Part shown: piece after piece, positions 1,835 to 47,089 of the stretch | How positions within the stretch are numbered: the stretch's first letter is position 1 | How the letters are laid out: each line of letters starts with the position of its first letter | NCBI GenBank assembly: GCA_036522415.1 | Contig: DATDFV010000230.1 | Span: forward strand, 43,783-107,782 | DNA from: Pyrinomonadaceae bacterium | GTDB lineage: Bacteria > Acidobacteriota > Blastocatellia > Pyrinomonadales > Pyrinomonadaceae | Reading direction: 5' to 3' | Length of the DNA stretch: 64,000 nt | Program-made: the position numbers and the translations under genes | The notes under the pieces: model-generated | What the model was told of the DNA's origin: nothing | Databases searched by the model: none | Seen by the model: only the letters and a program-made list of their open reading frames with translations

Positions 1835-3775
1835 TCAGTTGTGTGAGAGAAAGACGTCCCAGGCCCACCGCGCAATTTTGCCCTCTTGAGTGTCTTTGAC
1901 TTTTGCTCGATACCGAAACTCATTTCCAAACTGATCAGTACGTTTCGATTCCTTAAAATCAAATTCCAACTCTTTGATGTTTTGTGATGCGAGTGTGTGG
2001 AGCTCGCCGGTGTCAACCATTCCGTTGTGATTTGAATCCTGCCACAGCCGTAATCGTGAAAACACAGCATCCTGGCCATTAATTACTCCATCGCCATTTC
2101 CACCGTTCGCATCTGTGTCAAATTCAGCGAGAGCCAGAAATCCATTCTTGTTTGGACTGTCCGGCTGTGGGGTAAAATTTCCGAAAAGCTCAGAACCATC
2201 GTCGATATTTCCATTTCCGTTTCGATCGAGCGCGAGCCAGGCATCGTCTGAGTTAGCACGCGTCCATCCCAATCGATCTCTTGTGCCATTGCCGTTAAGA
2301 TCGAAATCAACGCCGTTAGCTGGATCAGTCAGAGCGATTCCATCTCCGTTCACGTCAATGATCACTGGAGACCCACCGATACACTTACATGTCAAAAAAT
2401 CGAAATCGCCGTCAAGCATCAAGCACTTACTGATTGCCGTTGCGCTGCAAGAACTGGTTGTTGAGAAGCAACATAGTCCCGTTCCATTCGGAGTGCTGCC
2501 CGGCGGACAACTGCCGTCAAAACCTGGAGTGGTGCAGCTACCCCCTGCTGTCGAGCCACCGCTGCAAGTGTGGTTCAGTATTACTTCTCCATTCCATACA
2601 TCGCCACCTACCAGGTGAATGCTGGAACCTGAACCCGACCAGGTTACCGTGAAGCCGCATCCGAGCACAGAACAATTACCCGTGCCAACGCCCCTTGCGC
2701 CGAAGCAAGAGATCTGCGTTGCTTTACTTCCCGTTGCGGTCTGAACTTTGTCCAATACTTTATTAGCGTGGTAGAAGAATAAGTTCGATATCTCTCCGTT
2801 CTCATAGGTGTATACGTCCGTAATACTAACCTGACAGCGCTGCTGGTTATTTGCTTCATCAAAACAAACTCCCTGCATGCCGACGGTTTCTCCATGTGCC
2901 CCGGAGATATGCTCTCTTCTGTCTTCGACTGTTCTCCTAACTATTGGGCCCGAGGTGGTCGCAGATGGGGAATAGTCCCCACCGGAGTTGATTCCGGAAT
3001 CGACACCATCACCATCTCCGCTTGCCATAGCCGAGCTATATGCAGCCACCGGGGGGCTAAAAGGATCGGGATCATTTTGTGACTCCATGACGGGACCCGG
3101 TTCGTTCCACACGTCCGTCACGGTTCCACCCGAGCCAACTATGCTGTCCCAAAACGTTGGTTTCAATGCGCCCTGAAACTTGTAAGGATTGTGAAACAGA
3201 GCCAAAGCCTTGTACGTCTTAGTCTTGCCTTGATAAGTAACGGTGACGACGTAAGCGGCGTACTCGCCGATATCAAAATCTTTGTGAGACTGAAAGCTCA
3301 TCACGTCGGCTATCGTCCATTGCGGTTCAAAGATTGCGGCATACTGTCCTGCGGTCCACTCCGCTTTGTACGAGACTGCAGGTTTGTCTTCATTTTCGCT
3401 TGTTTCTGATCTGATTAAGAGTAGGATCTCGCCAGTTGGCAGAGACACAAGCTCTTCTGCGCGCGTCAATGCAATTTCCTTAATAGGACCCACACGAAAA
3501 TTGGTTAGTTCAAACTTCAATACAGAATTTTCATCTAAAGGTGCCGATTTGGTCCTATCGGAAGTCTGAGCAGCACCATTCAACTTGGTGAGTTTTTCAT
3601 ACGTCGAACGCACAACCATTTCTTCGGGTGTGGGCGCCGTCGCTTTCTGTATTGAAATAGGTGATTTAGTTCGGCGACTCTCTGTTCCAGCAGTTTCCGT
3701 TTGCGCAAACAAAGCTCTGCAACCGATGACGCAAAGGAGTAAAGTGAGACTGAGCAGGCAGGCTTTTTTCTTCAT
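1835..3775 (-). CDS. secreted or lipoprotein, Cys-rich central region with C-terminal EF-hand-like Ca-binding repeats
   Basis: The ORF starts at 3823, but the likely start is MKKKACLLSLTLLLCVIGC (signal/lipobox) with AAGGGA 9-13 nt upstream. The C-terminal 150 aa carries DxNxNG loops (DSNHNGMVDTGE, DRNGNGNIDDGSE, DVNGDGIALTD). Confidence 0.7.
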   Translation of the reverse strand: MKKKACLLSLTLLLCVIGCRALFAQTETAGTESRRTKSPISIQKATAPTPEEMVVRSTYEKLTKLNGAAQTSDRTKSAPLDENSVLKFELTNFRVGPIKEIALTRAEELVSLPTGEILLLIRSETSENEDKPAVSYKAEWTAGQYAAIFEPQWTIADVMSFQSHKDFDIGEYAAYVVTVTYQGKTKTYKALALFHNPYKFQGALKPTFWDSIVGSGGTVTDVWNEPGPVMESQNDPDPFSPPVAAYSSAMASGDGDGVDSGINSGGDYSPSATTSGPIVRRTVEDRREHISGAHGETVGMQGVCFDEANNQQRCQVSITDVYTYENGEISNLFFYHANKVLDKVQTATGSKATQISCFGARGVGTGNCSVLGCGFTVTWSGSGSSIHLVGGDVWNGEVILNHTCSGGSTAGGSCTTPGFDGSCPPGSTPNGTGLCCFSTTSSCSATAISKCLMLDGDFDFLTCKCIGGSPVIIDVNGDGIALTDPANGVDFDLNGNGTRDRLGWTRANSDDAWLALDRNGNGNIDDGSELFGNFTPQPDSPNKNGFLALAEFDTDANGGNGDGVINGQDAVFSRLRLWQDSNHNGMVDTGELHTLASQNIKELEFDFKESKRTDQFGNEFRYRAKVKDTQEGKIARWAWDVFLSHN

Positions 3776-3788
3776 AAATTCCATCCCT

Positions 3789-4871
3789 TCAATTTTGCGA
3801 GGTTGAGGATTTGACTTGAGCACTCTTCAATTCGTGCTCAATCACTTCACTGAATTCTTCAAAGGTAACCGCGCCGCGGAGAACTTTTCCGTTGATTATG
3901 AAAGTTGGGGTTCCTTCAATACCAAGTCTTCGAGCTTCTGCTAGATCGGCCATTACCGCAGTCTGCGATTCCATTGAGGACAGACATTCATTGAACAGTT
4001 CAGAATTAAGCCTCAAGTCACGTCCAATTTGGTTGATGGTGGATTGAGATAGTTCCGCAGCTGCGAATAACGCGTCGTGAACTTGCCAGAAGGCTCCTTG
4101 TTTCCCTCCACAAAAAGCAGCTTTAGCAGCGGGAAAAGCAAATGGATGTGTCTCGATAGGTAGTGATTTGAACTGAAGTTTGACTTGAGGTGCGTAGCCC
4201 TGCATTACACGGCTTATGGTTAGTTGCGCTTCCTTGCAGTAAGGACACTGGAAATCTGAGAACTCCGTGATCACCACTCTTGCGCTTGCTGGACCTTTTG
4301 TTGCCGCGGGATCCTCATTTCTTGAAACGATCAGTCGAGGTTCCTCAAGTAAGACATCTATCTTGGTCTTTTGCCGAAGTGCGGAGATCTCATCACGGTA
4401 TCGTTTGAGACGAACTTGCGACTCGAGATCCATGCGTAATTTTTCCTTTGCTTCGTCCGGATTCATTAGCCCAAACGCGGAGCGATTTTTCAGGTACAGC
4501 TCGTTGACTTGTGCCTCGTCGACCACTACTGGTCCAGACATCCACTTATTCTTAAGCTCATTAACAGATAGCCTTTGCCGGCCTGCCTCTCCTTCTACAA
4601 TTTTTTTTGCTATCAGGTTAGTTAGTGTGGCCCGTCGCAGCGCAAATAATTGTTGTTGGAGGGCATAGATCTGCCCGCTGGCAACCTGATCGATCTCTTG
4701 TTCTGTGATGATCTGCTCTCCCACTCTTGCGACGATGGTTTGCTGGTCCTGTCCTTTGACAGTGGCTGTAACAATGAATAGACCGAGAAATACGATCGAT
4801 GTAGCTCGCACTCGTCGCGATTTCAGAAGAGATTTTTTATTACGCTGAGGGGTCGATGAGGATTTGTACAT
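3789..4871 (-). CDS. DsbA-family thiol:disulfide oxidoreductase with N-terminal membrane anchor and coiled-coil extension
   Basis: CPYC active-site motif (FSDFQCPYCKEAQ) in a thioredoxin fold. N-terminal TM segment LGLFIVTATV. Confidence 0.8.
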   Translation of the reverse strand: MYKSSSTPQRNKKSLLKSRRVRATSIVFLGLFIVTATVKGQDQQTIVARVGEQIITEQEIDQVASGQIYALQQQLFALRRATLTNLIAKKIVEGEAGRQRLSVNELKNKWMSGPVVVDEAQVNELYLKNRSAFGLMNPDEAKEKLRMDLESQVRLKRYRDEISALRQKTKIDVLLEEPRLIVSRNEDPAATKGPASARVVITEFSDFQCPYCKEAQLTISRVMQGYAPQVKLQFKSLPIETHPFAFPAAKAAFCGGKQGAFWQVHDALFAAAELSQSTINQIGRDLRLNSELFNECLSSMESQTAVMADLAEARRLGIEGTPTFIINGKVLRGAVTFEEFSEVIEHELKSAQVKSSTSQN

Positions 4872-5508: not shown

Positions 5509-6585
5509 CTACTTTCGGGCTTCGAAGATACGATTGAATGGAGTTTCTGCTGTTCGTCGAAAATCTTTGAAGCCACCTCTCAACACCGTGTCACGAAGAG
5601 CGGCCTCAGTCGCCACTGCGCCCAACGCAGGTCCATTTGAAGCAAGCGAGTTAGATGTGCAACACAGAGTAGAAGCGCCTGCGAACGTTCGTCCAATCGG
5701 ATTGAAGTTCTCCTCCACGCTATTGCCAGCCATCGGTTCAACAATCAACAGTGAGCCATCGGAAGCAAGAACCTCGGCCGCGCGTTTGCATGCACCAACC
5801 GGATCGCCCATGTCGTGCAAACAGTCAAAGAAGGTAATCAAGTCGTATTGATTGTCTGGTACTGATTGAGCGTCGGAGATTTCGAAGTGAATTCGATCGT
5901 TCACACCTGCGCCGGCTGCACGCTCTTTGGCGGAGTTGATCGAAGGTTCGTGATTATCGAAAGCCCAAAACTCTGAATTCGGATAAACCTGGGCCATGAT
6001 GATTGTTGATGCTCCATGCCCGCATCCGACATCAGCGACTCTCGCTCCGGCTTTCAATTTACTTTCAACTCCGGTAAGCGATGGGATCCACGATGCAGTC
6101 AGGTGGGCGGCGTACCCAGGACGGAAGAAACGTTCCGTGCCGACAAAGAGATCGGGATGATGTTCACCCCAAAACATGCCGCCTCCGCTGCGAAAGTGGT
6201 TTTCAATTCGTTCCACAGCTTGAGTCATGGCTTTAATGACATAAAAGCCGCCGCCTACATAGAACGGGCTGTTTTGATCAGTCAGTGCGACGGTCTGCTC
6301 GGCCGAAAGACTGTAGTGACCATTTTCGGCATCGTAATCAACGTAGCCGCCTGCGGCCTGATTTATTAGCCACTCTCTGATGTAACGTTCGTTGGTATTT
6401 GTCTGCCGGGCGAGTTCCTCGGGGGAGATGTGGCCAGCCTTTGCAATGGCCTCGTACAGACCAAGCTTTTGACCGATGTAGGCAAGAGAAGAACTAAGCG
6501 ATGCACCAAAATCGCTTACGACCTTGCCGAGAAACGCGTTCATTTTGTCTTCATTGATTTCTCTGTACTGAATTGTTGATGACAT
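5509..6585 (-). CDS. class I SAM-dependent methyltransferase
   Basis: VADVGCGHGAS SAM-binding motif I. Start chosen at MSSTIQY (ATG 6585) with GGAGG 5 nt upstream. The ORF track extends to 6732 through a His-rich stretch (HPHHNHHHPY) that lacks an RBS. Confidence 0.8.
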   Translation of the reverse strand: MSSTIQYREINEDKMNAFLGKVVSDFGASLSSSLAYIGQKLGLYEAIAKAGHISPEELARQTNTNERYIREWLINQAAGGYVDYDAENGHYSLSAEQTVALTDQNSPFYVGGGFYVIKAMTQAVERIENHFRSGGGMFWGEHHPDLFVGTERFFRPGYAAHLTASWIPSLTGVESKLKAGARVADVGCGHGASTIIMAQVYPNSEFWAFDNHEPSINSAKERAAGAGVNDRIHFEISDAQSVPDNQYDLITFFDCLHDMGDPVGACKRAAEVLASDGSLLIVEPMAGNSVEENFNPIGRTFAGASTLCCTSNSLASNGPALGAVATEAALRDTVLRGGFKDFRRTAETPFNRIFEARK

Positions 6586-10591: not shown

Positions 10592-11495
10592 ATCTTTCCA
10601 GTTCTTTTCGAGGCCAGCCGCCGAGATTCGCACCTGCCTCATAAGTGCTTTCCAGGAACTCCATCAATGCACCATCAGGATCGCTCGCAGCTCTCACGTC
10701 GTCGTACAAGAACAAAAACTCAGCCATATCGGTACTGTAGAAAGCTTTCTCGGGGCGAATCTTCGCCTGACCTAAACCTTCGGGAGCAGGGGCTGTGTAA
10801 GAATAAAAAGCCGGTTTGCCCAATGGACCTTGTCCCGGCCACCAACCATGACTGATCACTTCGTGTGAATACGCTTCGCGAGTAATCGGGTCTGCATCCG
10901 GCCGTGTCGGCGCCGGACGTCCTGAGAAGCGTGTGACTGCAAGATCGAAACTACCCCAAAAGAAATGAACGGGACTGCATTTGCCGATAAATCGCGATCG
11001 AAACTCTTGCAGAACTCGATCGGCATGTTTGAGTACCTGCCAACACTTGTTTGCATATTCAGGATCATAAGATTTATGAACCTCGTCCTGATCGAACGGG
11101 ATCGGATCTGGAATTTCCACCGGCATCTTCCAGATCCGAACAGTCAGGCCAAGGTCATCGAGGGCCGACATGGTTTCTCTGCAGAAAGCAGCGACTGACA
11201 TTGGTCTTAGCGCGATCTTCCGCGAAGCGCCGTCACTACATCTGATCTCAAGATTGTGATCGATAAAGTCAAACTCCATTTCAAAGAACGTCGATCCGTA
11301 CGGCATTGCGGTGGTAGTCAATCCTCTCGCAGAGACGTAGAGAGGAACATTCCACCAATGGTTGACCAGCGGTGTTTGGGCCAGTCTGACTTTACCAACG
11401 ATCTGCGTCCACATGTGCAGCGTCGCTCGTGTGTCTTCCCATGCTTCGAGTGGCAACGTTGGCCATGGTTCTGGAGTTTGGATAGGTTGTGACAT
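10590..11495 (-). CDS. conserved hypothetical protein (DUF5996-like by recollection)
   Basis: 301-aa ORF with good codon usage. N-terminus WPTLPLEAWEDTRATLHMWTQIVGKVRLA resembles the Ava_C0101/DUF5996 family (assigned from memory, unverified). Confidence 0.7.
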   Translation of the reverse strand: MSQPIQTPEPWPTLPLEAWEDTRATLHMWTQIVGKVRLAQTPLVNHWWNVPLYVSARGLTTTAMPYGSTFFEMEFDFIDHNLEIRCSDGASRKIALRPMSVAAFCRETMSALDDLGLTVRIWKMPVEIPDPIPFDQDEVHKSYDPEYANKCWQVLKHADRVLQEFRSRFIGKCSPVHFFWGSFDLAVTRFSGRPAPTRPDADPITREAYSHEVISHGWWPGQGPLGKPAFYSYTAPAPEGLGQAKIRPEKAFYSTDMAEFLFLYDDVRAASDPDGALMEFLESTYEAGANLGGWPRKELER

Positions 11496-11639
11496 GGTTG
11501 GCTCTCTCCTCTATCTGGAAATCTCTGTGTATCTCTTATATATCTGCGTGTCTGTGGTTGGAGAATACGATATCACCACAGAGGCACGGAGACACAGATC
11601 AACTTAGTCCGCAACCAAACCATCCTGAAAGGATGACAG

Positions 11640-11807
11640 TTAATAGCCGTGGGCGAGCGGCTTTGCGCGAAGCCCACGGAAGCAGGCGGTTACTGTCCGA
11701 CCCTGAAGGGGTCAAACCGGGCGGATGTTTGACCCTTTCAGGGTCTTCAATCTTTGCTTGATAACTCCCGTGGGCTTCGCGCAAAACCGCTCGCCCCCGG
11801 CTATTAA
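11640..11807. repeat. 168-bp imperfect long palindrome (candidate structured RNA or MITE)
   Basis: Left arm ttaatagccgtgggcgagcggctttgcgcgaagcccacgg...ccctgaaggggtcaaa. It is the reverse complement, at about 85% identity, of right arm tttgaccctttcagggtc...cccgtgggcttcgcgcaaaaccgctcgcccccggctattaa. Confidence 0.7.
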
Positions 11808-11889
11808 CTTCGGTCCCTTCGGGACGAGAATCTTGCTCAAAAAAACAAGAACTTGTTGGGTAGTTTCACAGAGAGAATCCTGACCCACC

Positions 11890-11919
11890 TTGACACCTGT
11901 TTCAGTTAGCACCTATAGT
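11890..11919 (+). promoter_or_regulatory. sigma70-like promoter (TTGACA-18-TATAGT)
   Basis: TTGACA at 11890-11895 and TATAGT at 11914-11919. It lies upstream of the leader ORF and cysM operon. Confidence 0.5.
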
Positions 11920-11952
11920 TTCGACGTACTAAATCCAGCCCAATTCAGAACC

Positions 11953-12054
11953 ATGAAACTGAAGGCTTGCGCATGTTGTTATTACTGCCCCTGGTGCTGC
12001 TATTTGCAGCGCGACCGGAAGGCCGTGTGCAGGCGTGAGGGGCGGGAGACGTAG
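11953..12054 (+). CDS. candidate Cys-codon-rich leader peptide (33 aa)
   Basis: MKLKACACCYYCPWCCYLQRDRKAVCRREGRET. It has 7 Cys codons including two tandem pairs. It sits between the promoter-like element and the terminator preceding cysM. No clear SD. An overlapping 21-codon ORF starts at 11973. Confidence 0.35.
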   Translation: MKLKACACCYYCPWCCYLQRDRKAVCRREGRET

Positions 12055-12084
12055 CCAAACACCAGCACTAATAAACGGCAGATA

Positions 12085-12118
12085 CCGGTTGCGCTATTTC
12101 GATAGCCGACCGGTTTTT
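12085..12118 (+). terminator. intrinsic terminator (attenuator arm) 18 nt upstream of the cysM start
   Basis: CCGGTTG, a 15-nt loop, CGACCGG, then TTTTT. The 5' arm can alternatively pair with GCGCGACCGG at 12010-12019 inside the leader ORF. Confidence 0.6.
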
Positions 12119-12135
12119 AGTTTTCAACGGTCTTT

Positions 12136-13068
12136 ATGTCACTTAGTGTTTTAGAAGAATGCGGAGTTGCTGCTCCTGGCAGTATCGAATCACGCATCGG
12201 GCATACGCCTCTCTTGCGCTTGCCGCACCTGAATCGCGATTTGCCGGTTGATGTGGAAATTCTCGTCAAAGCCGAACACCTCAACCCGGGCGGTTCTGTA
12301 AAAGACCGACCTGCGCTGTCGATGATCCTCGAGGGTGAACGCAGCGGAAGGCTGCGACCCGGCATGACTATTGTCGATGCGACCAGCGGTAACACTGGAA
12401 TTGCTTACGCTATGATCGGCGCTGCTCGGGGTTATCCAGTCACCGTCTGTTTACCAAAAAACGCAAGTATCCAGCGCAAAAACATCCTGCGAGCGTATGG
12501 CGTTGAGATCATTGAGACTGACCAGATGTTGTCAACCGACGGCGCTCAACGCATCGCGCGCGAGCTTCACGCGGCCGAACCCGACAAATACTTCTACCCC
12601 GATCAATACAACAACGACGCCAACTGGCTGGCGCACTACGAAACGACGGCAAACGAGATCTGGACACAAACCGAAGGACGTGTTACGCACTTCCTGACAG
12701 GTCTCGGCACCTCTGGAACCTTCACGGGTGTTGTTCGCCGCCTGCGTGAGTTAAAACCTGAGCTGAACGCGTTGTCTGTTCAACCGGAATCTCCCTTGCA
12801 CGGGCTCGAAGGTCTGAAACATATGGCAACAGCTTCGCATCCCGGAATTTATGATGAAACTTTGGTGGATCGCGTTATCGAAGTGTCAACAGAAGATGCC
12901 TTTGACATGTCCAGGCGCCTGGCGCGTGAACAAGGTTTATTGGTTGGGCCAAGTTCAGGAGCGAACGTATTTGCCGCCCGAAAACTCGCGCACTCATTGA
13001 GCGTTGACGCAGTAATTGTCACAATACTCTGCGACGGCGGTGAAAGATACTTAAGCGAGATGCTTTGA
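12136..13068 (+). CDS. cysM: cysteine synthase, CysM/CysK family (PLP-dependent)
   Basis: PLP-lysine motif SVKDRPA, glycine-rich loops GNTG and GTSGT. It is the first gene of the operon containing mec and cysO-moeZ. Confidence 0.9.
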   Translation: MSLSVLEECGVAAPGSIESRIGHTPLLRLPHLNRDLPVDVEILVKAEHLNPGGSVKDRPALSMILEGERSGRLRPGMTIVDATSGNTGIAYAMIGAARGYPVTVCLPKNASIQRKNILRAYGVEIIETDQMLSTDGAQRIARELHAAEPDKYFYPDQYNNDANWLAHYETTANEIWTQTEGRVTHFLTGLGTSGTFTGVVRRLRELKPELNALSVQPESPLHGLEGLKHMATASHPGIYDETLVDRVIEVSTEDAFDMSRRLAREQGLLVGPSSGANVFAARKLAHSLSVDAVIVTILCDGGERYLSEML

Positions 13069-14267
13069 TGGCTGACAAGGAACCCACATTCGATATCGCG
13101 ACGAAGCTGGTTCATAGCGGCGAGCGGCAGACCGCATCCGACGCTCAGTCAGTTGCGACGCCGATCTATGCCACTGCCACGTTCACCTACGAATCGATGG
13201 AGGAGATCGATCGCGTGTTCAGCGGCGAAAAGCAGGGCTTTATCTACACGCGCTATGGAAATCCAACTATCGGTGCCCTTGAGAATGCGATTAAAACTAT
13301 CGAGGAAGGTGCAACTGCGTGTGCATATTCCACCGGCATGGCCGCGCTGCACGCAGCGCTATTTGCGTGTGATTTGAAACCCGGTGCCACAATCGTCGCT
13401 TCTCAAGATCTATACGGTGCGACTACTGGCCTTTTGAATACGGTGTTTGGCTCGTTCGGCATCAAGACTGTTGCTACGGATTTCAGTAATCTTGAACAAT
13501 TACGAGCAGCAGTGCTGGAGGCAAAGCCGGCGGTTCTGGTTGCAGAAACTATCTCAAATCCACTACTGAAAGTTTGCGACATCGAGGCCTGCGCTGAAAT
13601 CGCCCGCGAAGTCGGAGCGCGGTTAATCGTGGATAACACGTTTGCTTCGCCATACCTCTGCCAACCTCTAAAGTTCGGAGCTGACCTCGTTGTTCACAGC
13701 GCAACAAAATACCTGGGGGGCCACGCTGATGCGATGGGCGGCCTGGTTGTCTCGCGGGATGAGTTTGATAGCCTGGCACTGGTCGGCGTAATGAAACTGG
13801 TTGGCGGAGTTCTAAGTGTCTGGGACGCGCACCAAATTTCGCGTGGGATTAAAACGCTTGGTGTTCGGCTCGATCGTCAATGTGAGAATGCCAGAGTGCT
13901 GGCGGAACACCTGCGAAAAGACGAACGAATAGATGAGGTTTATTATCCGGGATTTCAGTCGGCAGTTGATTTAGTAGTTACTCGGCGAATGCTGAGAAAG
14001 CCGCACTCGGGTGCGTTGGTATCGATCAAACTGAAGAACGACACCCGCGAAGCTGCGTTTCGATTCATGAATGCTTTGCGGTTGTGTGTGCGTTCGACGA
14101 GTTTAGGAGATGTTTTTACCAGCGTGCTGCACCCATCAACTGCTTCGCACAGAGATTTGACACCAGCTCGAAGGGCGGAGCTTGGGATCGCGGATGGACT
14201 GATTCGGATTTCGGTGGGAATTGAGAGTGTTGATGACATAATTGCAGATATTACACAGGCATTGTGA
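13065..14267 (+). CDS. Cys/Met-metabolism PLP-dependent enzyme (MetB/MetZ/MetY family sulfhydrylase or gamma-synthase)
   Basis: SATKYLGGHAD PLP-lysine motif. Its start overlaps the cysM stop (ATGA). Confidence 0.85.
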   Translation: MMADKEPTFDIATKLVHSGERQTASDAQSVATPIYATATFTYESMEEIDRVFSGEKQGFIYTRYGNPTIGALENAIKTIEEGATACAYSTGMAALHAALFACDLKPGATIVASQDLYGATTGLLNTVFGSFGIKTVATDFSNLEQLRAAVLEAKPAVLVAETISNPLLKVCDIEACAEIAREVGARLIVDNTFASPYLCQPLKFGADLVVHSATKYLGGHADAMGGLVVSRDEFDSLALVGVMKLVGGVLSVWDAHQISRGIKTLGVRLDRQCENARVLAEHLRKDERIDEVYYPGFQSAVDLVVTRRMLRKPHSGALVSIKLKNDTREAAFRFMNALRLCVRSTSLGDVFTSVLHPSTASHRDLTPARRAELGIADGLIRISVGIESVDDIIADITQAL

Positions 14268-14339: not shown

Positions 14340-14771
14340 ATGCTAACACTGACGCCAACACATCTCGCGGAAATCTCAAGTCATGGGGAGCGTGACTACC
14401 CTTATGAATGCTGCGGACTGCTCATCGGCCGATTTGATTCAGTCGAGGAAAAGGTGGTCTTGGAGACATATCCGATCTCAAATGCGCGTGAGGAGAGTGC
14501 GAAACGGAATAGGTTTTTAATTGAACCTGAAGAGTTAATGAAAGGAGAGCGGTACGCGCGAACCAACGATCGTGAGGTCGTCGGTTTCTACCATTCGCAT
14601 CCTGAATCACCTGCGGTGCCGTCGCAGTACGATCTGGAACATGCATGGCCGACGTACTCCTATATTATTGTGTCAGTTATTAAAGAGAGGGCCGGCGACC
14701 TGTTTTCATGGGAACAGGAACCTGACAGATCGAAGTTTACGAAGGAAGATATTAAGATTGCGGGGCTTTGA
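14340..14771 (+). CDS. mec: JAMM/MPN+ metalloprotease, Mec (CysO-Cys hydrolase) type
   Basis: JAMM motif HSHPESPAVPSQYD plus upstream E and CCGLLIG. 143 aa. Confidence 0.85.
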   Translation: MLTLTPTHLAEISSHGERDYPYECCGLLIGRFDSVEEKVVLETYPISNAREESAKRNRFLIEPEELMKGERYARTNDREVVGFYHSHPESPAVPSQYDLEHAWPTYSYIIVSVIKERAGDLFSWEQEPDRSKFTKEDIKIAGL

Positions 14772-14893: not shown

Positions 14894-16345
14894 ATGCCAA
14901 TCAAAATTGCCATTCCAGCTCCATTGCGGCAGTTTGCCAGTGGACATTCCCAAATCGAAGTCGAGGCAAAGACGGCGGGCGAAGCGCTCGATCTCCTAAC
15001 TTCAACGCACGCTCCATTACGCAAGCATCTTTTCAACGAGCAGAACAGGCTCCGCAACTTCGTGAATGTTTACCTGAACGATGAGGACATTCGTCATGCT
15101 TCGGGACCTGACACTCCGTTAAAAGACGGCGATACGCTCATGATTGTGCCGTCGATTGCTGGAGGTGCGGTGATCGAAGAAGAAGTTGGACAAGCGCTTC
15201 CGGAGTTGTCCAACGAAGAGATCCTCCGTTACAGCCGGCATTTGATCATGCCTGAAGTTGGAATGCAGGGTCAGCGAAAGATGAAAGCCTCGAGCGTGTT
15301 GATGATTGGTACTGGTGGACTCGGCGCGCCCGTAGGCATGTATCTGGCAGCGGCCGGCGTCGGTCGAATCGGAATTGTGGATTTCGATGTGGTTGAGGAA
15401 TCGAACCTGCAACGTCAGATTATTCACGGGACCAAAGACCTCGGTCGCCGCAAAATCGAATCGGCCCGTGATCGGTTGCGCGACATCAACCCGCACATTG
15501 AGATCGAGACTCACGAATCGAGACTGACAAGTCAGAACGCGATGGCCCTGTTTCGAAACTACGACATCATAGTCGACGGTACAGACAATTTCCCGACTCG
15601 TTATCTCGTAAACGATGCTTGCGTGTTAACGGGTAAACCGAATGTCTACGGATCGATCTTCAGATTTGAGGGACAGGCCAGTGTGTTCTGGGCCGAGAAG
15701 GGTGCTTGTTATCGCTGTCTTTATCCGGAACCGCCGCCGCCTGGCCTGGTTCCATCATGCGCCGAGGGAGGCGTACTCGGAGTTCTGCCTGGCATTGTTG
15801 GTGCGATTCAGGCAAACGAAACGATCAAGATCATTCTCGGCTCAGAAGATATTCTCGTGAATCGTTTGTTGTTGTTTGATGCCTGGACGATGAAGTTTCG
15901 AGAGTTCAAGTTGCGGAAAGATCCGAAGTGTCCGGTTTGCGGCGAACAACCAACAATTAAAGGTTTGATTGATTACGAAGAGTTCTGCGGTTTGCGAGCG
16001 CAGCCGCCTGTTCCCGAATCAAAGTTGGAACAGATCTCTGCTATGGAACTGAATGCCCGCCGCCTGCGTGGCGACAAGATCCAGATCATCGATGTGCGCG
16101 AACCGCACGAGTTTGAGATCGCTCGTATACCGGGAACAAAACTAATTCCGCTGGGACACGTAGTGAGCAGGATGAATGAAATCGATCAGGAAGTGGACAC
16201 GATTGTTCATTGCAAGGGCGGTGTGCGCAGTGCCAAGGCAATTGAGGCATTGAAACGCGCCGGCTTCAATGGGAAGTTGATCAATCTGAAAGGTGGAATC
16301 ACCGCGTGGTCGGAAGAGGTTGACCCGCGGGTGGCGAAATACTGA
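14894..16345 (+). CDS. in-frame fusion: CysO/ThiS/MoaD-like sulfur carrier (aa 1-91, ending GG) + MoeZ/MoeB E1-like adenylyltransferase + rhodanese
   Basis: N-terminus FVNVYLNDEDIRH...MIVPSIAGG is a CysO-like beta-grasp domain. It then reads without a stop into RYSRHLIMPEVG, GTGGLGAP, CYRC/CPVC and the rhodanese HCKGGVRS. GGA GGT (15161-15166) doubles as an SD for GTG 15170. Confidence 0.8.
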   Translation: MPIKIAIPAPLRQFASGHSQIEVEAKTAGEALDLLTSTHAPLRKHLFNEQNRLRNFVNVYLNDEDIRHASGPDTPLKDGDTLMIVPSIAGGAVIEEEVGQALPELSNEEILRYSRHLIMPEVGMQGQRKMKASSVLMIGTGGLGAPVGMYLAAAGVGRIGIVDFDVVEESNLQRQIIHGTKDLGRRKIESARDRLRDINPHIEIETHESRLTSQNAMALFRNYDIIVDGTDNFPTRYLVNDACVLTGKPNVYGSIFRFEGQASVFWAEKGACYRCLYPEPPPPGLVPSCAEGGVLGVLPGIVGAIQANETIKIILGSEDILVNRLLLFDAWTMKFREFKLRKDPKCPVCGEQPTIKGLIDYEEFCGLRAQPPVPESKLEQISAMELNARRLRGDKIQIIDVREPHEFEIARIPGTKLIPLGHVVSRMNEIDQEVDTIVHCKGGVRSAKAIEALKRAGFNGKLINLKGGITAWSEEVDPRVAKY

Positions 16346-43268: not shown

Positions 43269-44552
43269 CGCTCGCACCATCGCTTCGCGGTCCCACAACG
43301 ACCTCGTTAGGAACCAAATGATCCCGGGCAATAAAAAGAAACTGCCAATTCCAATGGTTACTATTCGTGGTGAAATGCTGAACCGATCGAGTAATTCGCC
43401 CGTGACGTAATTCGAAGCCGCCATTGTCAACGTCAGTAGAGCTAACTCCGCGGCGAACACGCGACCTCTGAAATTGTCCTCAACACTTCGCTGCAATAAC
43501 ACTGTGGAAAACACCCAGAGAATACTGCCGCCCATATGCGCAATTCCAAGGACAATCAAAGCAAAAACAAAACTAGTTGCCGCACCGAACGCGATATAAC
43601 CAACGCCGCCGATCAGGAACGCAATCCCTATCGAAACCGTCAGGCTACTCTTTCCCTCGCCGGCCAGGCGCCGCGCTGCAATTGGCCCCACAGCAGTGCC
43701 TATTCCTCTCGCAGCGAAAAGAACACCGATTCCAGTGGCCGCACTTTTACCGACCGGAAAAATGCGTTCCCCGAAAACTGCCAGTAACGTCATTATTCCT
43801 CCGCCCAGGCCCCACGCTGGTTTCACCAGGAGCAGGGCGAGGACGCCAGGGCGTCGTTTGACGTAGCGCGCGCCCTCCAGCGTTTCGGTAATACCCAGTG
43901 CCTGTAAAAGGCTTAACTTGCGTCGTTCACGCTTCGGTCTCTTTGGCAAGCGCACATTGAAAATCAACACCGCTGAGAGCACATAACTTAACGCGTCAAG
44001 AATGAATGCAGCGTTGGTACCGAACCAGCCGGTGATTATTCCACCAATTGCCGCGCCTAAAGTCAGCATCACTGACCATGTCACCGACGATATTGAGTTG
44101 GCAGCTACCAACTCGCGATCGGCAACGAGAGAAGGTACGGCAGCAGTCTTCGCTGGTTCAAAGAATGTGGAGAGCGCAAGTTGGAGGACTGTTAAGACGT
44201 AGATAATCCAAAGTTGATCTGCCCGCCTGACAAACAGGAACCCAAGCACAACCAGTGCGCGCAACAGGTCCGACCAGATCATGATGGTACGCCGACTGAA
44301 CCGGTCGGCGACCACACCGGAAACAGGGCCGAATAGAAAGCTCGGCACGAACCGAGCGACGAGGAGTAATCCCACGTCGCGCCCGGAGCCGGTCAGATTG
44401 AGGATGATCGTGTAGAGCGCAATCGTGTCGAACCAGTCGCCCATCTGGCTGACGACTTGACCCAGCCACAACTGTCTAAAGTTACGATTGCGGCGAAGCA
44501 GATCGATATAGCCGACCGTGTACTCCGGAGTTTTGAAAGGTTTGATTGCCAA
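43185..44552 (-). CDS. MFS transporter, C-terminal tail encoded by a family D REP
   Basis: 12 TM helices. The last ~25 codons (...VEQKPLSLSHESSSVGARPSSAAPTE) read into repeat D2. Confidence 0.75.
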   Translation of the reverse strand: MAIKPFKTPEYTVGYIDLLRRNRNFRQLWLGQVVSQMGDWFDTIALYTIILNLTGSGRDVGLLLVARFVPSFLFGPVSGVVADRFSRRTIMIWSDLLRALVVLGFLFVRRADQLWIIYVLTVLQLALSTFFEPAKTAAVPSLVADRELVAANSISSVTWSVMLTLGAAIGGIITGWFGTNAAFILDALSYVLSAVLIFNVRLPKRPKRERRKLSLLQALGITETLEGARYVKRRPGVLALLLVKPAWGLGGGIMTLLAVFGERIFPVGKSAATGIGVLFAARGIGTAVGPIAARRLAGEGKSSLTVSIGIAFLIGGVGYIAFGAATSFVFALIVLGIAHMGGSILWVFSTVLLQRSVEDNFRGRVFAAELALLTLTMAASNYVTGELLDRFSISPRIVTIGIGSFFLLPGIIWFLTRSLWDREAMVRAPVEQKPLSLSHESSSVGARPSSAAPTE

Positions 44553-45076: not shown

Positions 45077-47089
45077 ATGCTGCTATCCCCCTCCCAACAC
45101 AACCGCTCAGGGGTGGTTAATGCCTCTCTGCGTGACTCTTTGCTTGTTTGGTGGCAGAAATATCAACTTGCTGTTTCGTGGACATTACTGGTTGTACCGC
45201 TAGCTGCCGCCATGTTCTACAGCACTACTCTTCAGCCTCTCTTGCCCTATCTCTTCATTTCTCCAGTATCGATATTCGCAGGCTACCTGATTTATCGCGG
45301 CACTGTTTCACGATTAAAGATAAAAACAAGCGAGGTTGAAGCGCTAAGCAAACTTCATCTCGCAACCGCCGAGGCGCTTGCGACAGCAATCGACGCAAAG
45401 GATCAGATTACACATTGTCACGTTCGCCGCGTGCAGGTTTACGCCGCGCGGATGGGCGAGGTTTTTGGCCTGTCAGATAACGAAATCTCAGCCTTGAAAG
45501 CTGGTGCGGTGCTGCACGACATCGGCAAGCTCGCCGTGCCTCCACATATTTTGAACAAACCGGGGCGGCTGACCCCCGCAGAGTTTGAGAAGATGAAGAT
45601 TCATACGGTTGTGGGTGCGCAAATCCTGAGTCGGGTGGACTTTCCTTATCCCATCGTACCGATAATCCGTCATCATCACGAACGCTGGGACGGCCGCGGA
45701 TATCCGGATCGCCTGAAGGGTGAACAGATCCCAATAACGGCAAGAATCATTTCTGTCGTTGATTGCTTTGATTCGGTTCGTGAAGACCGGCCGTTTCGTC
45801 GTGGTATGACAATCGACGAGGCCACTGCATTGCTGCGACGTGGCTCGGGGATTCATTTCGACCCTCACGTCGTGGATCAATTTCTGAGACATCTGTCCGA
45901 GTTTGACGCGGAAATAGCAGCTCTTGGTCTACAGCCTGCATCGACCGGCTCAGTTCATGATCAGCCAATGCATCTCAGTGACGTGGATATGACACAGACG
46001 CGAGAACGCGGCTCTTACATGGCCTACGATCAGATCAAGAAAGCACACGGCGAGGTCTACGCCCTGTATGAGATTGCGCGAACCTTCGGAACGTCGCTGG
46101 ATCTTGAACACACGCTCGAGAGTATGGTCGATAAGGTTGGACACGTCGTTCCCTTTGATAGCTGCGTCGTTTATTTCTACGATGAACTAAAGGGTTACGC
46201 GACTGCACGTCACGCTGTGGGCAAATACTCAGACCTGCTTAAAGGTCGATGTATTGCTCCAGGCGAGGGCGTGACAGGTTTTGCTCTCGCAAATCGTAGT
46301 GCTGTCAATCAACTTCATCCCAGCCTCGACTTTACCGATCTAAACCCGGCCGCCGGAATCAAATTCCAGGCAATGGCTTCATTGCCGTTGTTCAAAGATG
46401 ATTTGTTGCTCGGTGCCCTGTCAGTCTATTCGAACGATCTCGAGCAATATACTCACGATCACATGCGCCTGCTCGAGACCGTCACGAGACTCGCATCGGA
46501 TGCTCTTGCCAACGCAATGCAACACGCCGAAGCCGAGTCGCATGCGCTTACCGATGCGATAACCGGCTTGCCAAACTCTCGTTCTCTGTCAGTTCGCTTT
46601 GAGGAAGAGGCTGCGCGTGCACGACGAACGGGACGTAGCTTCCAGGTTGTGATGCTCGATCTGGACGAGTTCAAGAACGTCAACGACAGCTATGGCCACA
46701 AGCTTGGCGACAAGATGCTTCGAGAAGTTGCCTCATTGATTCAAAATCAACTTCGCGAATACGACTTTCTATGTCGTTATGCGGGTGATGAATTCGTTGC
46801 GCTTGTGCAGGAAGTTGTCGGTCTGCAAGTGGACGAACTCTGTCTGCGCATCGAAAATGTGGTTTCAAAGTTCTCTTTATCTGTTGGTCGCAATAAGCAG
46901 GCGCGCGTCGGCATCAGCATTGGAACCGCCACGTTTGGCACCGACGGCGACACGTTGGATCAGCTACTCAACGCCGCGGACGATAAGATGTACAGAATGA
47001 AGTCGATCCATCGCCTTGAGCGGAGTATGCCACCATTGCCACCGGCGTCAGATCCGAAGGAAGTATTGCCAGGAGCGGCGAGTAGTTAA
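45077..47089 (+). CDS. membrane-anchored HD-GYP phosphodiesterase + GAF + GGDEF (AGDEF variant) c-di-GMP signalling protein
   Basis: HD motif (HDIGK) and HHERWDGRGYP (GYP motif), a GAF segment, and RYAGDEFVAL in the GGDEF domain. Confidence 0.8.
   Translation: MLLSPSQHNRSGVVNASLRDSLLVWWQKYQLAVSWTLLVVPLAAAMFYSTTLQPLLPYLFISPVSIFAGYLIYRGTVSRLKIKTSEVEALSKLHLATAEALATAIDAKDQITHCHVRRVQVYAARMGEVFGLSDNEISALKAGAVLHDIGKLAVPPHILNKPGRLTPAEFEKMKIHTVVGAQILSRVDFPYPIVPIIRHHHERWDGRGYPDRLKGEQIPITARIISVVDCFDSVREDRPFRRGMTIDEATALLRRGSGIHFDPHVVDQFLRHLSEFDAEIAALGLQPASTGSVHDQPMHLSDVDMTQTRERGSYMAYDQIKKAHGEVYALYEIARTFGTSLDLEHTLESMVDKVGHVVPFDSCVVYFYDELKGYATARHAVGKYSDLLKGRCIAPGEGVTGFALANRSAVNQLHPSLDFTDLNPAAGIKFQAMASLPLFKDDLLLGALSVYSNDLEQYTHDHMRLLETVTRLASDALANAMQHAEAESHALTDAITGLPNSRSLSVRFEEEAARARRTGRSFQVVMLDLDEFKNVNDSYGHKLGDKMLREVASLIQNQLREYDFLCRYAGDEFVALVQEVVGLQVDELCLRIENVVSKFSLSVGRNKQARVGISIGTATFGTDGDTLDQLLNAADDKMYRMKSIHRLERSMPPLPPASDPKEVLPGAASS

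Follow-up and report, generated by a model that had tools for sequence, protein, structure and literature searches.

A putative cysteine-codon leader-peptide attenuator upstream of the cysM operon in a Pyrinomonadaceae bacterium

The window analyzed here, a stretch of 64,000 nucleotides (nt) from contig DATDFV010000230.1 of a Pyrinomonadaceae bacterium (assembly GCA_036522415.1, forward-strand positions 43,783 to 107,782), contains a candidate cysteine (Cys)-sensing leader immediately upstream of a cysM-like gene. The promoter, the leader and the genes that follow it are all encoded on the forward strand. The first gene of the putatively regulated operon, at 12136-13068, encodes a cysM-like synthase; its match to TIGR01138 (cysM; E 2.9e-105) falls below the equivalog cutoff, and the product was hence assigned to the CysM/CysK family. 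The stop codon of cysM is overlapped by the start of a gene for a pyridoxal phosphate enzyme of the cystathionine gamma-synthase / methionine gamma-lyase family (MetB-like; 13065-14267), which is followed by a JAMM/desampylase-like (Mec-like) gene (14340-14771; NF041370, E 2.7e-22, below the curated cutoff) and by a fusion gene (14894-16345) whose product joins a CysO-like sulfur carrier of the MoaD/SAMP type, at residues 9-91, to a MoeZ/MoeB adenylyltransferase and a rhodanese domain. These family matches agree with the cysM, MetB-like, mec and cysO-moeZ genes named in a first-pass annotation of this DNA. The nearest relatives of the window CysM (60-76% identity) are found in metagenome-assembled genomes (MAGs) of Pyrinomonadaceae/Blastocatellia (Acidobacteriota), and an identical protein is recorded on a JGI metagenome contig.

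The leader open reading frame (ORF) occupies positions 11953-12054 and extends over 33 codons from the ATG at 11953 to the TAG ending at 12054. Its product, MKLKACACCYYCPWCCYLQRDRKAVCRREGRET, contains seven Cys residues, and on reading the sequence we confirmed the ORF and the Cys count given by the first-pass annotation. Six of the Cys codons (at 11968, 11974, 11977, 11986, 11995 and 11998) fall within 11 codons (codons 6-16) and make up the putative regulatory tract at 11968-12000, and the seventh lies at 12028-12030. When ATG-started small ORFs (sORFs) of 10-70 amino acids (aa) were collected from all six frames and screened for at least five Cys in any 12 residues, the leader ORF was the only one of 587 in the window to be retained; among the 4004 sORFs collected from approximately 500 kb of related loci, 27 were retained, and 22 of these immediately preceded cysM and shared its strand. 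A polyCys sORF at 45344-45415 on the reverse strand of the window, antisense within a 670-aa ORF, and another at 113-169 on the reverse strand of locus L016, within coding-looking sequence, were dismissed as chance occurrences.

For comparison we used 80 species-representative genome loci with cysM and 80 metagenome cysM loci, 160 loci in all, which are referred to below by the letter L and a number. A sigma-70-type promoter, TTGACA-18-TATAGT, was present at 11890-11919 (TTGACA at 11890-11895 and TATAGT at 11914-11919), as the first-pass annotation had proposed, with 11 of 12 positions matching the consensus. It is the sole promoter-like site in 11400-12400; 0.8 such sites are expected per kb by chance, so that one per kb is close to the chance rate. 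The weight of the promoter call therefore comes from the occurrence of TTGACA...TATAGT at the homologous position in relatives and not from the match alone. Transcription would start near position 11926. The distance between the -10 box and the leader ATG is 33 nt in the window and 19-27 nt in other loci, and in eight close lineages (L001-L006, L008 and L009) only 9-11 nt lie between the end of the TATAGT -10 box and the ATG. The leader mRNA of these eight lineages would have a 5' untranslated region (UTR) of roughly 2-4 nt, making it nearly leaderless; the window leader is probably not leaderless, with a predicted 5' UTR of approximately 27 nt. A Shine-Dalgarno sequence is missing from the window leader and from all 25 leaders inspected among the genome loci, which bears out a reservation of the first-pass annotation.

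Downstream of the leader ORF, positions 12085-12113 form a terminator stem of 12 bp, CCGGUUG-(C bulge)-GCUAU, a UUCG loop and AUAGC-CGACCGG, followed by TTTTTAGTTTT. An intrinsic terminator had been recognized here before; it is present and a better one than was described, with a 12-bp bulged stem and a UUCG loop in place of the 7-bp stem and 15-nt loop originally given. Owing to the 1-nt bulge, a simple terminator scan was blind to this hairpin and direct folding was used instead, which gave a free energy (dG) of approximately -16 to -19 kcal/mol. We refer to the 5' arm (12085-12097), which folding and conservation indicate can pair with either of two partners, as segment 3, and to the 3' arm (12102-12113) together with the U-tract as segment 4 (12102-12124 in all). 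The terminator structure ends 22 nt upstream of the cysM ATG at 12136 and does not cover it, and the T-run is separated from the same ATG by 17 nt. Since this 17-nt gap contains no promoter-like site, cysM should be transcribable only by read-through.

The terminator is conserved among relatives. In essentially all of the 50 loci that carry a leader, the interval from the leader stop codon to cysM holds a strong hairpin, with a dG of approximately -16 to -30 kcal/mol, followed by a T-run, and the terminator is the RNAalifold consensus structure of the leader alignment. In the 38 alignable leaders, 94% of the terminator stem was paired versus 23-43% in controls in which the partner columns were slid along the alignment. 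In L010 and L011, part of the terminator arm recurs (GGAATCGCGACGGGTCGCGACCGGC) 3' of the attenuator terminator, ahead of a longer spacer to cysM; this second copy may be a duplicated or decayed element.

The leader ORF itself contains an antiterminator box, GCGCGACCGG, at 12009-12018, whose partner is the terminator arm at 12085-12094. The first-pass annotation had correctly predicted such a segment and its partner, placing the segment at 12010-12019, one nucleotide away from its actual location. The pairing extends to 11 bp (12008-12018 with 12085-12095), and the extended box, AGCGCGACCGG at 12008-12018, repeats the terminator 3' arm within the leader ORF. Because RNAalifold applied to the whole leader yields the terminator only, the alternative helices were scored as named structures. 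The 7-bp core between the box and the terminator 5' arm was formed in 36-38 of the 38 aligned sequences, and 86% of the cells of this helix were paired versus 22-34% in the slid controls. When the strongest duplex partner of each terminator 5' arm was sought without an alignment, it began between -2 and +10 nt past the last tract Cys codon in about 44 of 50 loci (approximately 21 of the 25 genome and 23 of the 25 metagenome loci), and this position was kept in L019-L029, L044 and L128 despite different terminator sequences. Judged from these sequences, the positional regularity of the box across lineages is a stronger signal than the z-scores of single duplexes.

The box is also part of a second predicted structure. 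In the minimum-free-energy fold, segment 1 (11965-12000), which overlaps the Cys tract, forms the 5' strand of a protector (anti-antiterminator) hairpin, and segment 2 (12006-12034), which contains the box at 12008-12018 and is identified by folding and by nucleotide conservation, forms the 3' strand. The isolated protector element has a dG of -34.2 kcal/mol, and its outer helix was 79% paired in 16 relatives versus 31-50% in the slid controls. In transcripts that end before segment 3, the box pairs mostly with the tract region, with a mean of 0.66 in the 25 genome loci versus 0.37 with shuffled tracts, and a mean of 0.70 in the metagenome set. The leader stop at 12052 sits 34 nt past the box, and in relatives the box ends 13-42 nt upstream of the stop. 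The window thus departs from the trp arrangement, where segment 2 is masked by the ribosome that has reached the stop codon, a feature peculiar to trp and not general to leader attenuators; it was correctly cautioned in the first pass that the spacing is not that of trp, and a ribosome at the stop would leave the box uncovered. This spacing can be explained by the pairing of the Cys tract at 11965-12000 with 12006-12034 as a protector.

ATG-started Cys-rich ORFs precede cysM in 50 of the 160 loci, 25 from each set of 80. Nearly all loci whose CysM is at least 68% identical carry one, and in the metagenome set this holds for every such locus that extends far enough upstream. The conservation of Cys codons and hairpins in related genomes, named in the first-pass annotation as a check, was strongly positive. 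Examples of leaders in relatives include MMMKACACCLYCQWCYC..., MNHACYYCCCHCTCCAWC..., MKKSQSKKQICCRCCGCVC... and MSIETSVKCTCCCCITCACC..., and a leader from a Rhodothermales MAG reads MMRSLSFAGCACCPPCCC.... The 38 aligned leaders have 25-37 codons with 5-9 Cys (median 7.5), such that Cys accounts for 23.5% of codons, encoded by 155 TGC and 125 TGT. The N-terminus of the leader is variable among relatives, and the positions of the Cys codons and the choice of TGT or TGC turn over while the Cys count is kept; in L084 and L086, for example, the first three Cys of the window tract have been lost and other Cys gained. The tract is in frame with the ATG throughout the aligned leaders, and the ATG and in-frame Cys codons persist in lineages whose nucleotides are no longer alignable (L015, L019-L029, L040 and L044). 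In L024, L027, L030 and L039, a small conserved ORF of approximately 70-85 aa is located upstream of cysM in place of the Cys leader and seems to belong to the operon as a preceding gene.

The sequence downstream of the tract behaves differently from the tract, being kept as nucleotides (GCAGCGCGAYCGnGAnGCCGTnTGCrGGC). This conserved sequence is read as ...RDRxAVC... in about half of the 38 leaders, as ...ATERPFAG... in about half and as ...RRPDG... in one; L083, whose CysM is 90% identical, has a 1-nt deletion relative to the window just past the tract and ends in ...CSATGRPCAGVRGG. With all three frames in use for the same nucleotides, it is the RNA that, on this comparison, is constrained in the 3' half of the ORF, and the 5' half is kept as Cys codons in the frame of the ATG.

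Folding of transcripts of increasing length indicated that the leader could behave as a switch. The minimum-free-energy fold was the protector, a long imperfect hairpin whose 5' strand takes in the Cys tract and one codon ahead of it, for transcripts ending at 12036-12084, the antiterminator for 3' ends at 12090-12108, and the protector with the terminator from 12113 onward. When the tract was masked in the full-length leader, as by a stalled ribosome, the antiterminator was favored (-46.4 kcal/mol). Equilibrium folding with ribosome masks before the 3' arm was present gave the antiterminator at any ribosome position, that is, no discrimination, from which we infer that discrimination is kinetic and set by the order of folding. 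The findpath barrier from the protector to the antiterminator was estimated at 14-22 kcal/mol.

These observations, chiefly the comparison with relatives, point with good confidence to a trp-style, ribosome-mediated transcription attenuator of this soil acidobacterium, with 1:2, 2:3 and 3:4 pairings, that senses charged tRNA-Cys and controls the cysM / metB-like / mec-like / cysO-moeZ operon; the transcription start, the translation of the leader, the stalling and the dependence on Cys are those that the sequence predicts. In the proposed mechanism, transcription would begin from the promoter at 11890-11919 and the 33-codon leader would be translated. With plentiful Cys-tRNA, the ribosome would pass the six-codon tract and reach the stop at 12052, segment 1 (11965-12000) would re-pair with segment 2 (12006-12034) behind it, and segment 3 (12085-12097), left free, would pair with segment 4 (12102-12113), so that the polymerase would stop in the U-tract, 17 nt upstream of cysM. 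With scarce Cys-tRNA, the ribosome would stall on the tract and cover segment 1, and the single-stranded segment 2 would capture the emerging segment 3 in an 11-bp antiterminator stacked on an inner helix, which would block the terminator and allow the polymerase to enter the operon. The features of a leader attenuator that were found in silico are a short ORF between the promoter and the first biosynthetic gene, an enrichment in cognate codons (7 of 33), an intrinsic terminator, an antiterminator that excludes it, and a protector that overlaps the regulatory codons, the last being weak in some sequences such as L082. The reading is further supported because the genes that would be regulated make cysteine.

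Several points weigh against this interpretation. The window leader has no Shine-Dalgarno sequence and is probably not leaderless either, and the protector with the terminator is nearly iso-energetic with the antiterminator. The model would depend on fast refolding of the protector, since a terminating ribosome leaves segment 2 unmasked. The protector is also not robustly predicted in every sequence: L082 hardly differs from the window, yet its equilibrium box-to-tract pairing was 0.06. The shuffle statistics overstate significance in general, since the sequences are related. The duplex z-scores of the box are individually modest, the arms being GC-rich, and are weak in the most divergent lineages. 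Finally, two-sided changes occurred in only 4 of 10 pairs of each helix, antiterminator and terminator, so that the support for these helices is mainly one of conservation.

The putative Cys attenuator resembles the classical attenuators (trp, his, leu, thr, pheA and ilv of Proteobacteria; trp and ilvB of Actinobacteria) in having a promoter-proximal ORF rich in codons for the end product, segments 1-4 arranged as mutually exclusive protector, antiterminator and terminator hairpins, and a terminator just upstream of the first structural gene. It differs from them in its use of cysteine, in its Acidobacteriota host, in the lack of a Shine-Dalgarno sequence and the nearly leaderless starts of its relatives, and in its long, interrupted tract with 6 Cys codons in 11. 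In addition, the window ORF continues 34 nt past the box, such that segment 2 is unmasked at termination, and the tract itself is the protector strand.

The first-pass annotation had described Cys-codon leaders as rare, which is fair, but such leaders have already been documented. Seliverstov et al. (2005; PMC1262725) predicted Cys-codon leaders without terminators upstream of actinobacterial cys operons, and Canestrari et al. (2020; 10.1101/834739) reported that polycysteine leaderless sORFs of mycobacteria are cysteine-responsive. The mycobacterial Ms5788A acts translationally, through a duplex that sequesters the downstream ribosome-binding site (RBS), and has no terminator (10.1101/834739). 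In Rhodobacterales, Brewer et al. (2021; PMC8632094) described a motif ahead of cysS, uORFC-8-2, for which ribosome-mediated transcription attenuation was predicted; its first stem holds the Cys codons, just two in tandem at about codons 14-15, and its terminator has a U-run.

As in mycobacteria, an unannotated Cys-rich sORF with consecutive Cys leads a cysteine operon in the window, with stalling as the proposed signal and no Shine-Dalgarno sequence, and eight relatives of the window, like the leaderless mycobacterial sORFs, place the ATG at a short distance (9-11 nt) past the -10 box. Unlike Ms5788A, the window conserves an intrinsic terminator and an antiterminator and not RBS sequestration, so that, as far as its predicted structures go, the leader is not in the mycobacterial translational class; the absence of any sequence relationship to the mycobacterial sORFs implies an independent origin. 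The window also differs from uORFC-8-2, in that the operon concerned is a cysM biosynthetic operon and not cysS, the tract has six Cys and not two, and the host belongs to the Acidobacteriota and not the Alphaproteobacteria; there is neither detectable sequence similarity between the two nor an Rfam match in the region. Full-text searches of the literature outside subscription journals did not turn up any Cys leader described from Acidobacteriota. The combination of cysteine, a classical terminator, a CysO/CysM operon and Acidobacteriota is apparently new, and the mechanism itself is textbook.

PolyCys sORFs of other arrangements were observed in the comparison loci. In two Terriglobia MAGs (L053 at 5830-5909 and L076 at 4767-4832), an intra-operon polyCys sORF (...SCCRCCCCCR and ...ARCCCCCL, respectively) is located between a cysO-like gene ending in ...SIAGGR* and moeZ, 47-52 nt upstream of the moeZ ATG, with no obvious terminator seen; this arrangement may represent a different, translational form of Cys sensing. 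In two Blastocatellia MAGs (L041 at 2934-3002, MIQTRNNCCCCYACLAKHCCCC; L055 at 2906-2971, MNRKASMNNYAITDTRCCCCF), a polyCys sORF without a terminator overlaps the predicted cysM start by approximately 35 nt in another frame, and a ribosome stalled on it would sit on the cysM initiation region.

We weighed the attenuator against other readings of the same DNA. It is unlikely, in our judgment, that the Cys-rich sORF of the window acts mainly on the translation of cysM, by unmasking of the RBS or by coupling and reinitiation, with the hairpin being no more than a leaky terminator or an element for stability. In mycobacteria, the Cys sORF attenuator proven by experiment is translational, and polyCys sORFs without a terminator occur elsewhere in Acidobacteriota, at the cysM start (L041 and L055) and between cysO and moeZ (L053 and L076); however, the hairpin and U-tract of the window form a canonical intrinsic terminator that falls 22 nt short of the cysM ATG, there is no Shine-Dalgarno sequence to sequester, and the leader stop lies 81 nt upstream of cysM, too distant for coupling. 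The conserved copy of the terminator 3' arm within the ORF, moreover, makes sense only under terminator control. The same duplicated arm speaks against the ORF being an independent gene for a functional Cys-rich micro-protein (metal- or redox-related, for example) with its own terminator, for which proximity to cysM would be coincidence or co-function. Conservation of the ORF, together with the promoter and terminator that it possesses, would suit such a gene, and some leader peptides, such as peTrpL, are known to act in trans. But the Cys spacing is not kept, the N-terminus is variable, the C-terminal half is read in three frames and there is no space for a separate cysM promoter, and we regard this possibility as very improbable.

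An RNA attenuator that binds a ligand or a protein, riboswitch-like or regulator-bound, with the ORF being incidental, would account for the strong conservation of 12006-12034 and of the terminator as nucleotides irrespective of frame. The Rfam covariance models, however, gave no match at the gathering score across the whole window, and at E values up to 10 no riboswitch, T-box or known leader family was matched over 11800-12200. Only three mutually exclusive hairpins are present, with no aptamer-like core, and the ATG and in-frame Cys codons outlast nucleotide alignability (L015, L019-L029, L040 and L044), which together leave such an element little chance of being the explanation. Least credible of all, to the point of being nearly negligible, is a leucine (Leu) leader whose true regulatory frame is the overlapping +2 frame. 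The Leu-rich ORF at 11973-12038 to which the first-pass annotation drew attention does exist, and the +2 frame of the window reads MLLLLPLVLLFAARPEGRVQA, but it is an arithmetic by-product of TGY runs, because TGY-TGY always reads YTG (Leu) in +2. An ATG precedes the tract in the +2 frame in only 8 of the 25 genome loci and in the Cys frame in all 25, and the operon product is cysteine, not leucine.

The intergenic region upstream of the leader promoter contains the only sub-threshold Rfam hits, two matches to the Acido-Lenti-1 RNA motif (RF01687), at 11768-11826 on the forward strand and 11621-11660 on the reverse strand, with scores of 29.3 and 23.5 bits, respectively, versus a gathering score of 37. 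The two copies are in inverted orientation and both contain GGCTATTAAC. Between them, at 11700-11745, is a long near-perfect hairpin (ACCCTGAAGGGGTCAAAC...GTTTGACCCTTTCAGGGT), which could be the terminator of the divergent DUF5996 gene or a repeat element.

Beyond the window, we tentatively raise the possibility, which we hold to be somewhat doubtful, that polycysteine sensor sORFs arose independently in Acidobacteriota as a family centred on the CysO-thiocarboxylate / CysM pathway, a "Cys ribulon" as Canestrari et al. use the term, with at least three architectures. These might comprise the classical terminator-type attenuator of Pyrinomonadaceae/Blastocatellia, exemplified by the window and often nearly leaderless, the sORF that overlaps the cysM start (L041 and L055), and the sORF within the operon between cysO and moeZ in Terriglobia (L053 and L076). 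The approximately 50 natural variants offer material for the study of attenuator evolution, including shifts of the leader frame, Cys codons that change place, and starts that range from leadered to nearly leaderless, and they flag an unannotated class of sORFs that should not be labelled as hypothetical proteins. If such a family exists, ribosome-based sensing of cysteine would be recurrent outside Actinobacteria, and the window would hold the first Cys attenuator of the classical, transcription-terminating kind on an operon for cysteine biosynthesis. On the attenuator reading itself, cysteine, which is rarely a regulatory amino acid, can drive a full trp-style terminator switch, tied here to the CysO/CysM thiocarboxylate route.

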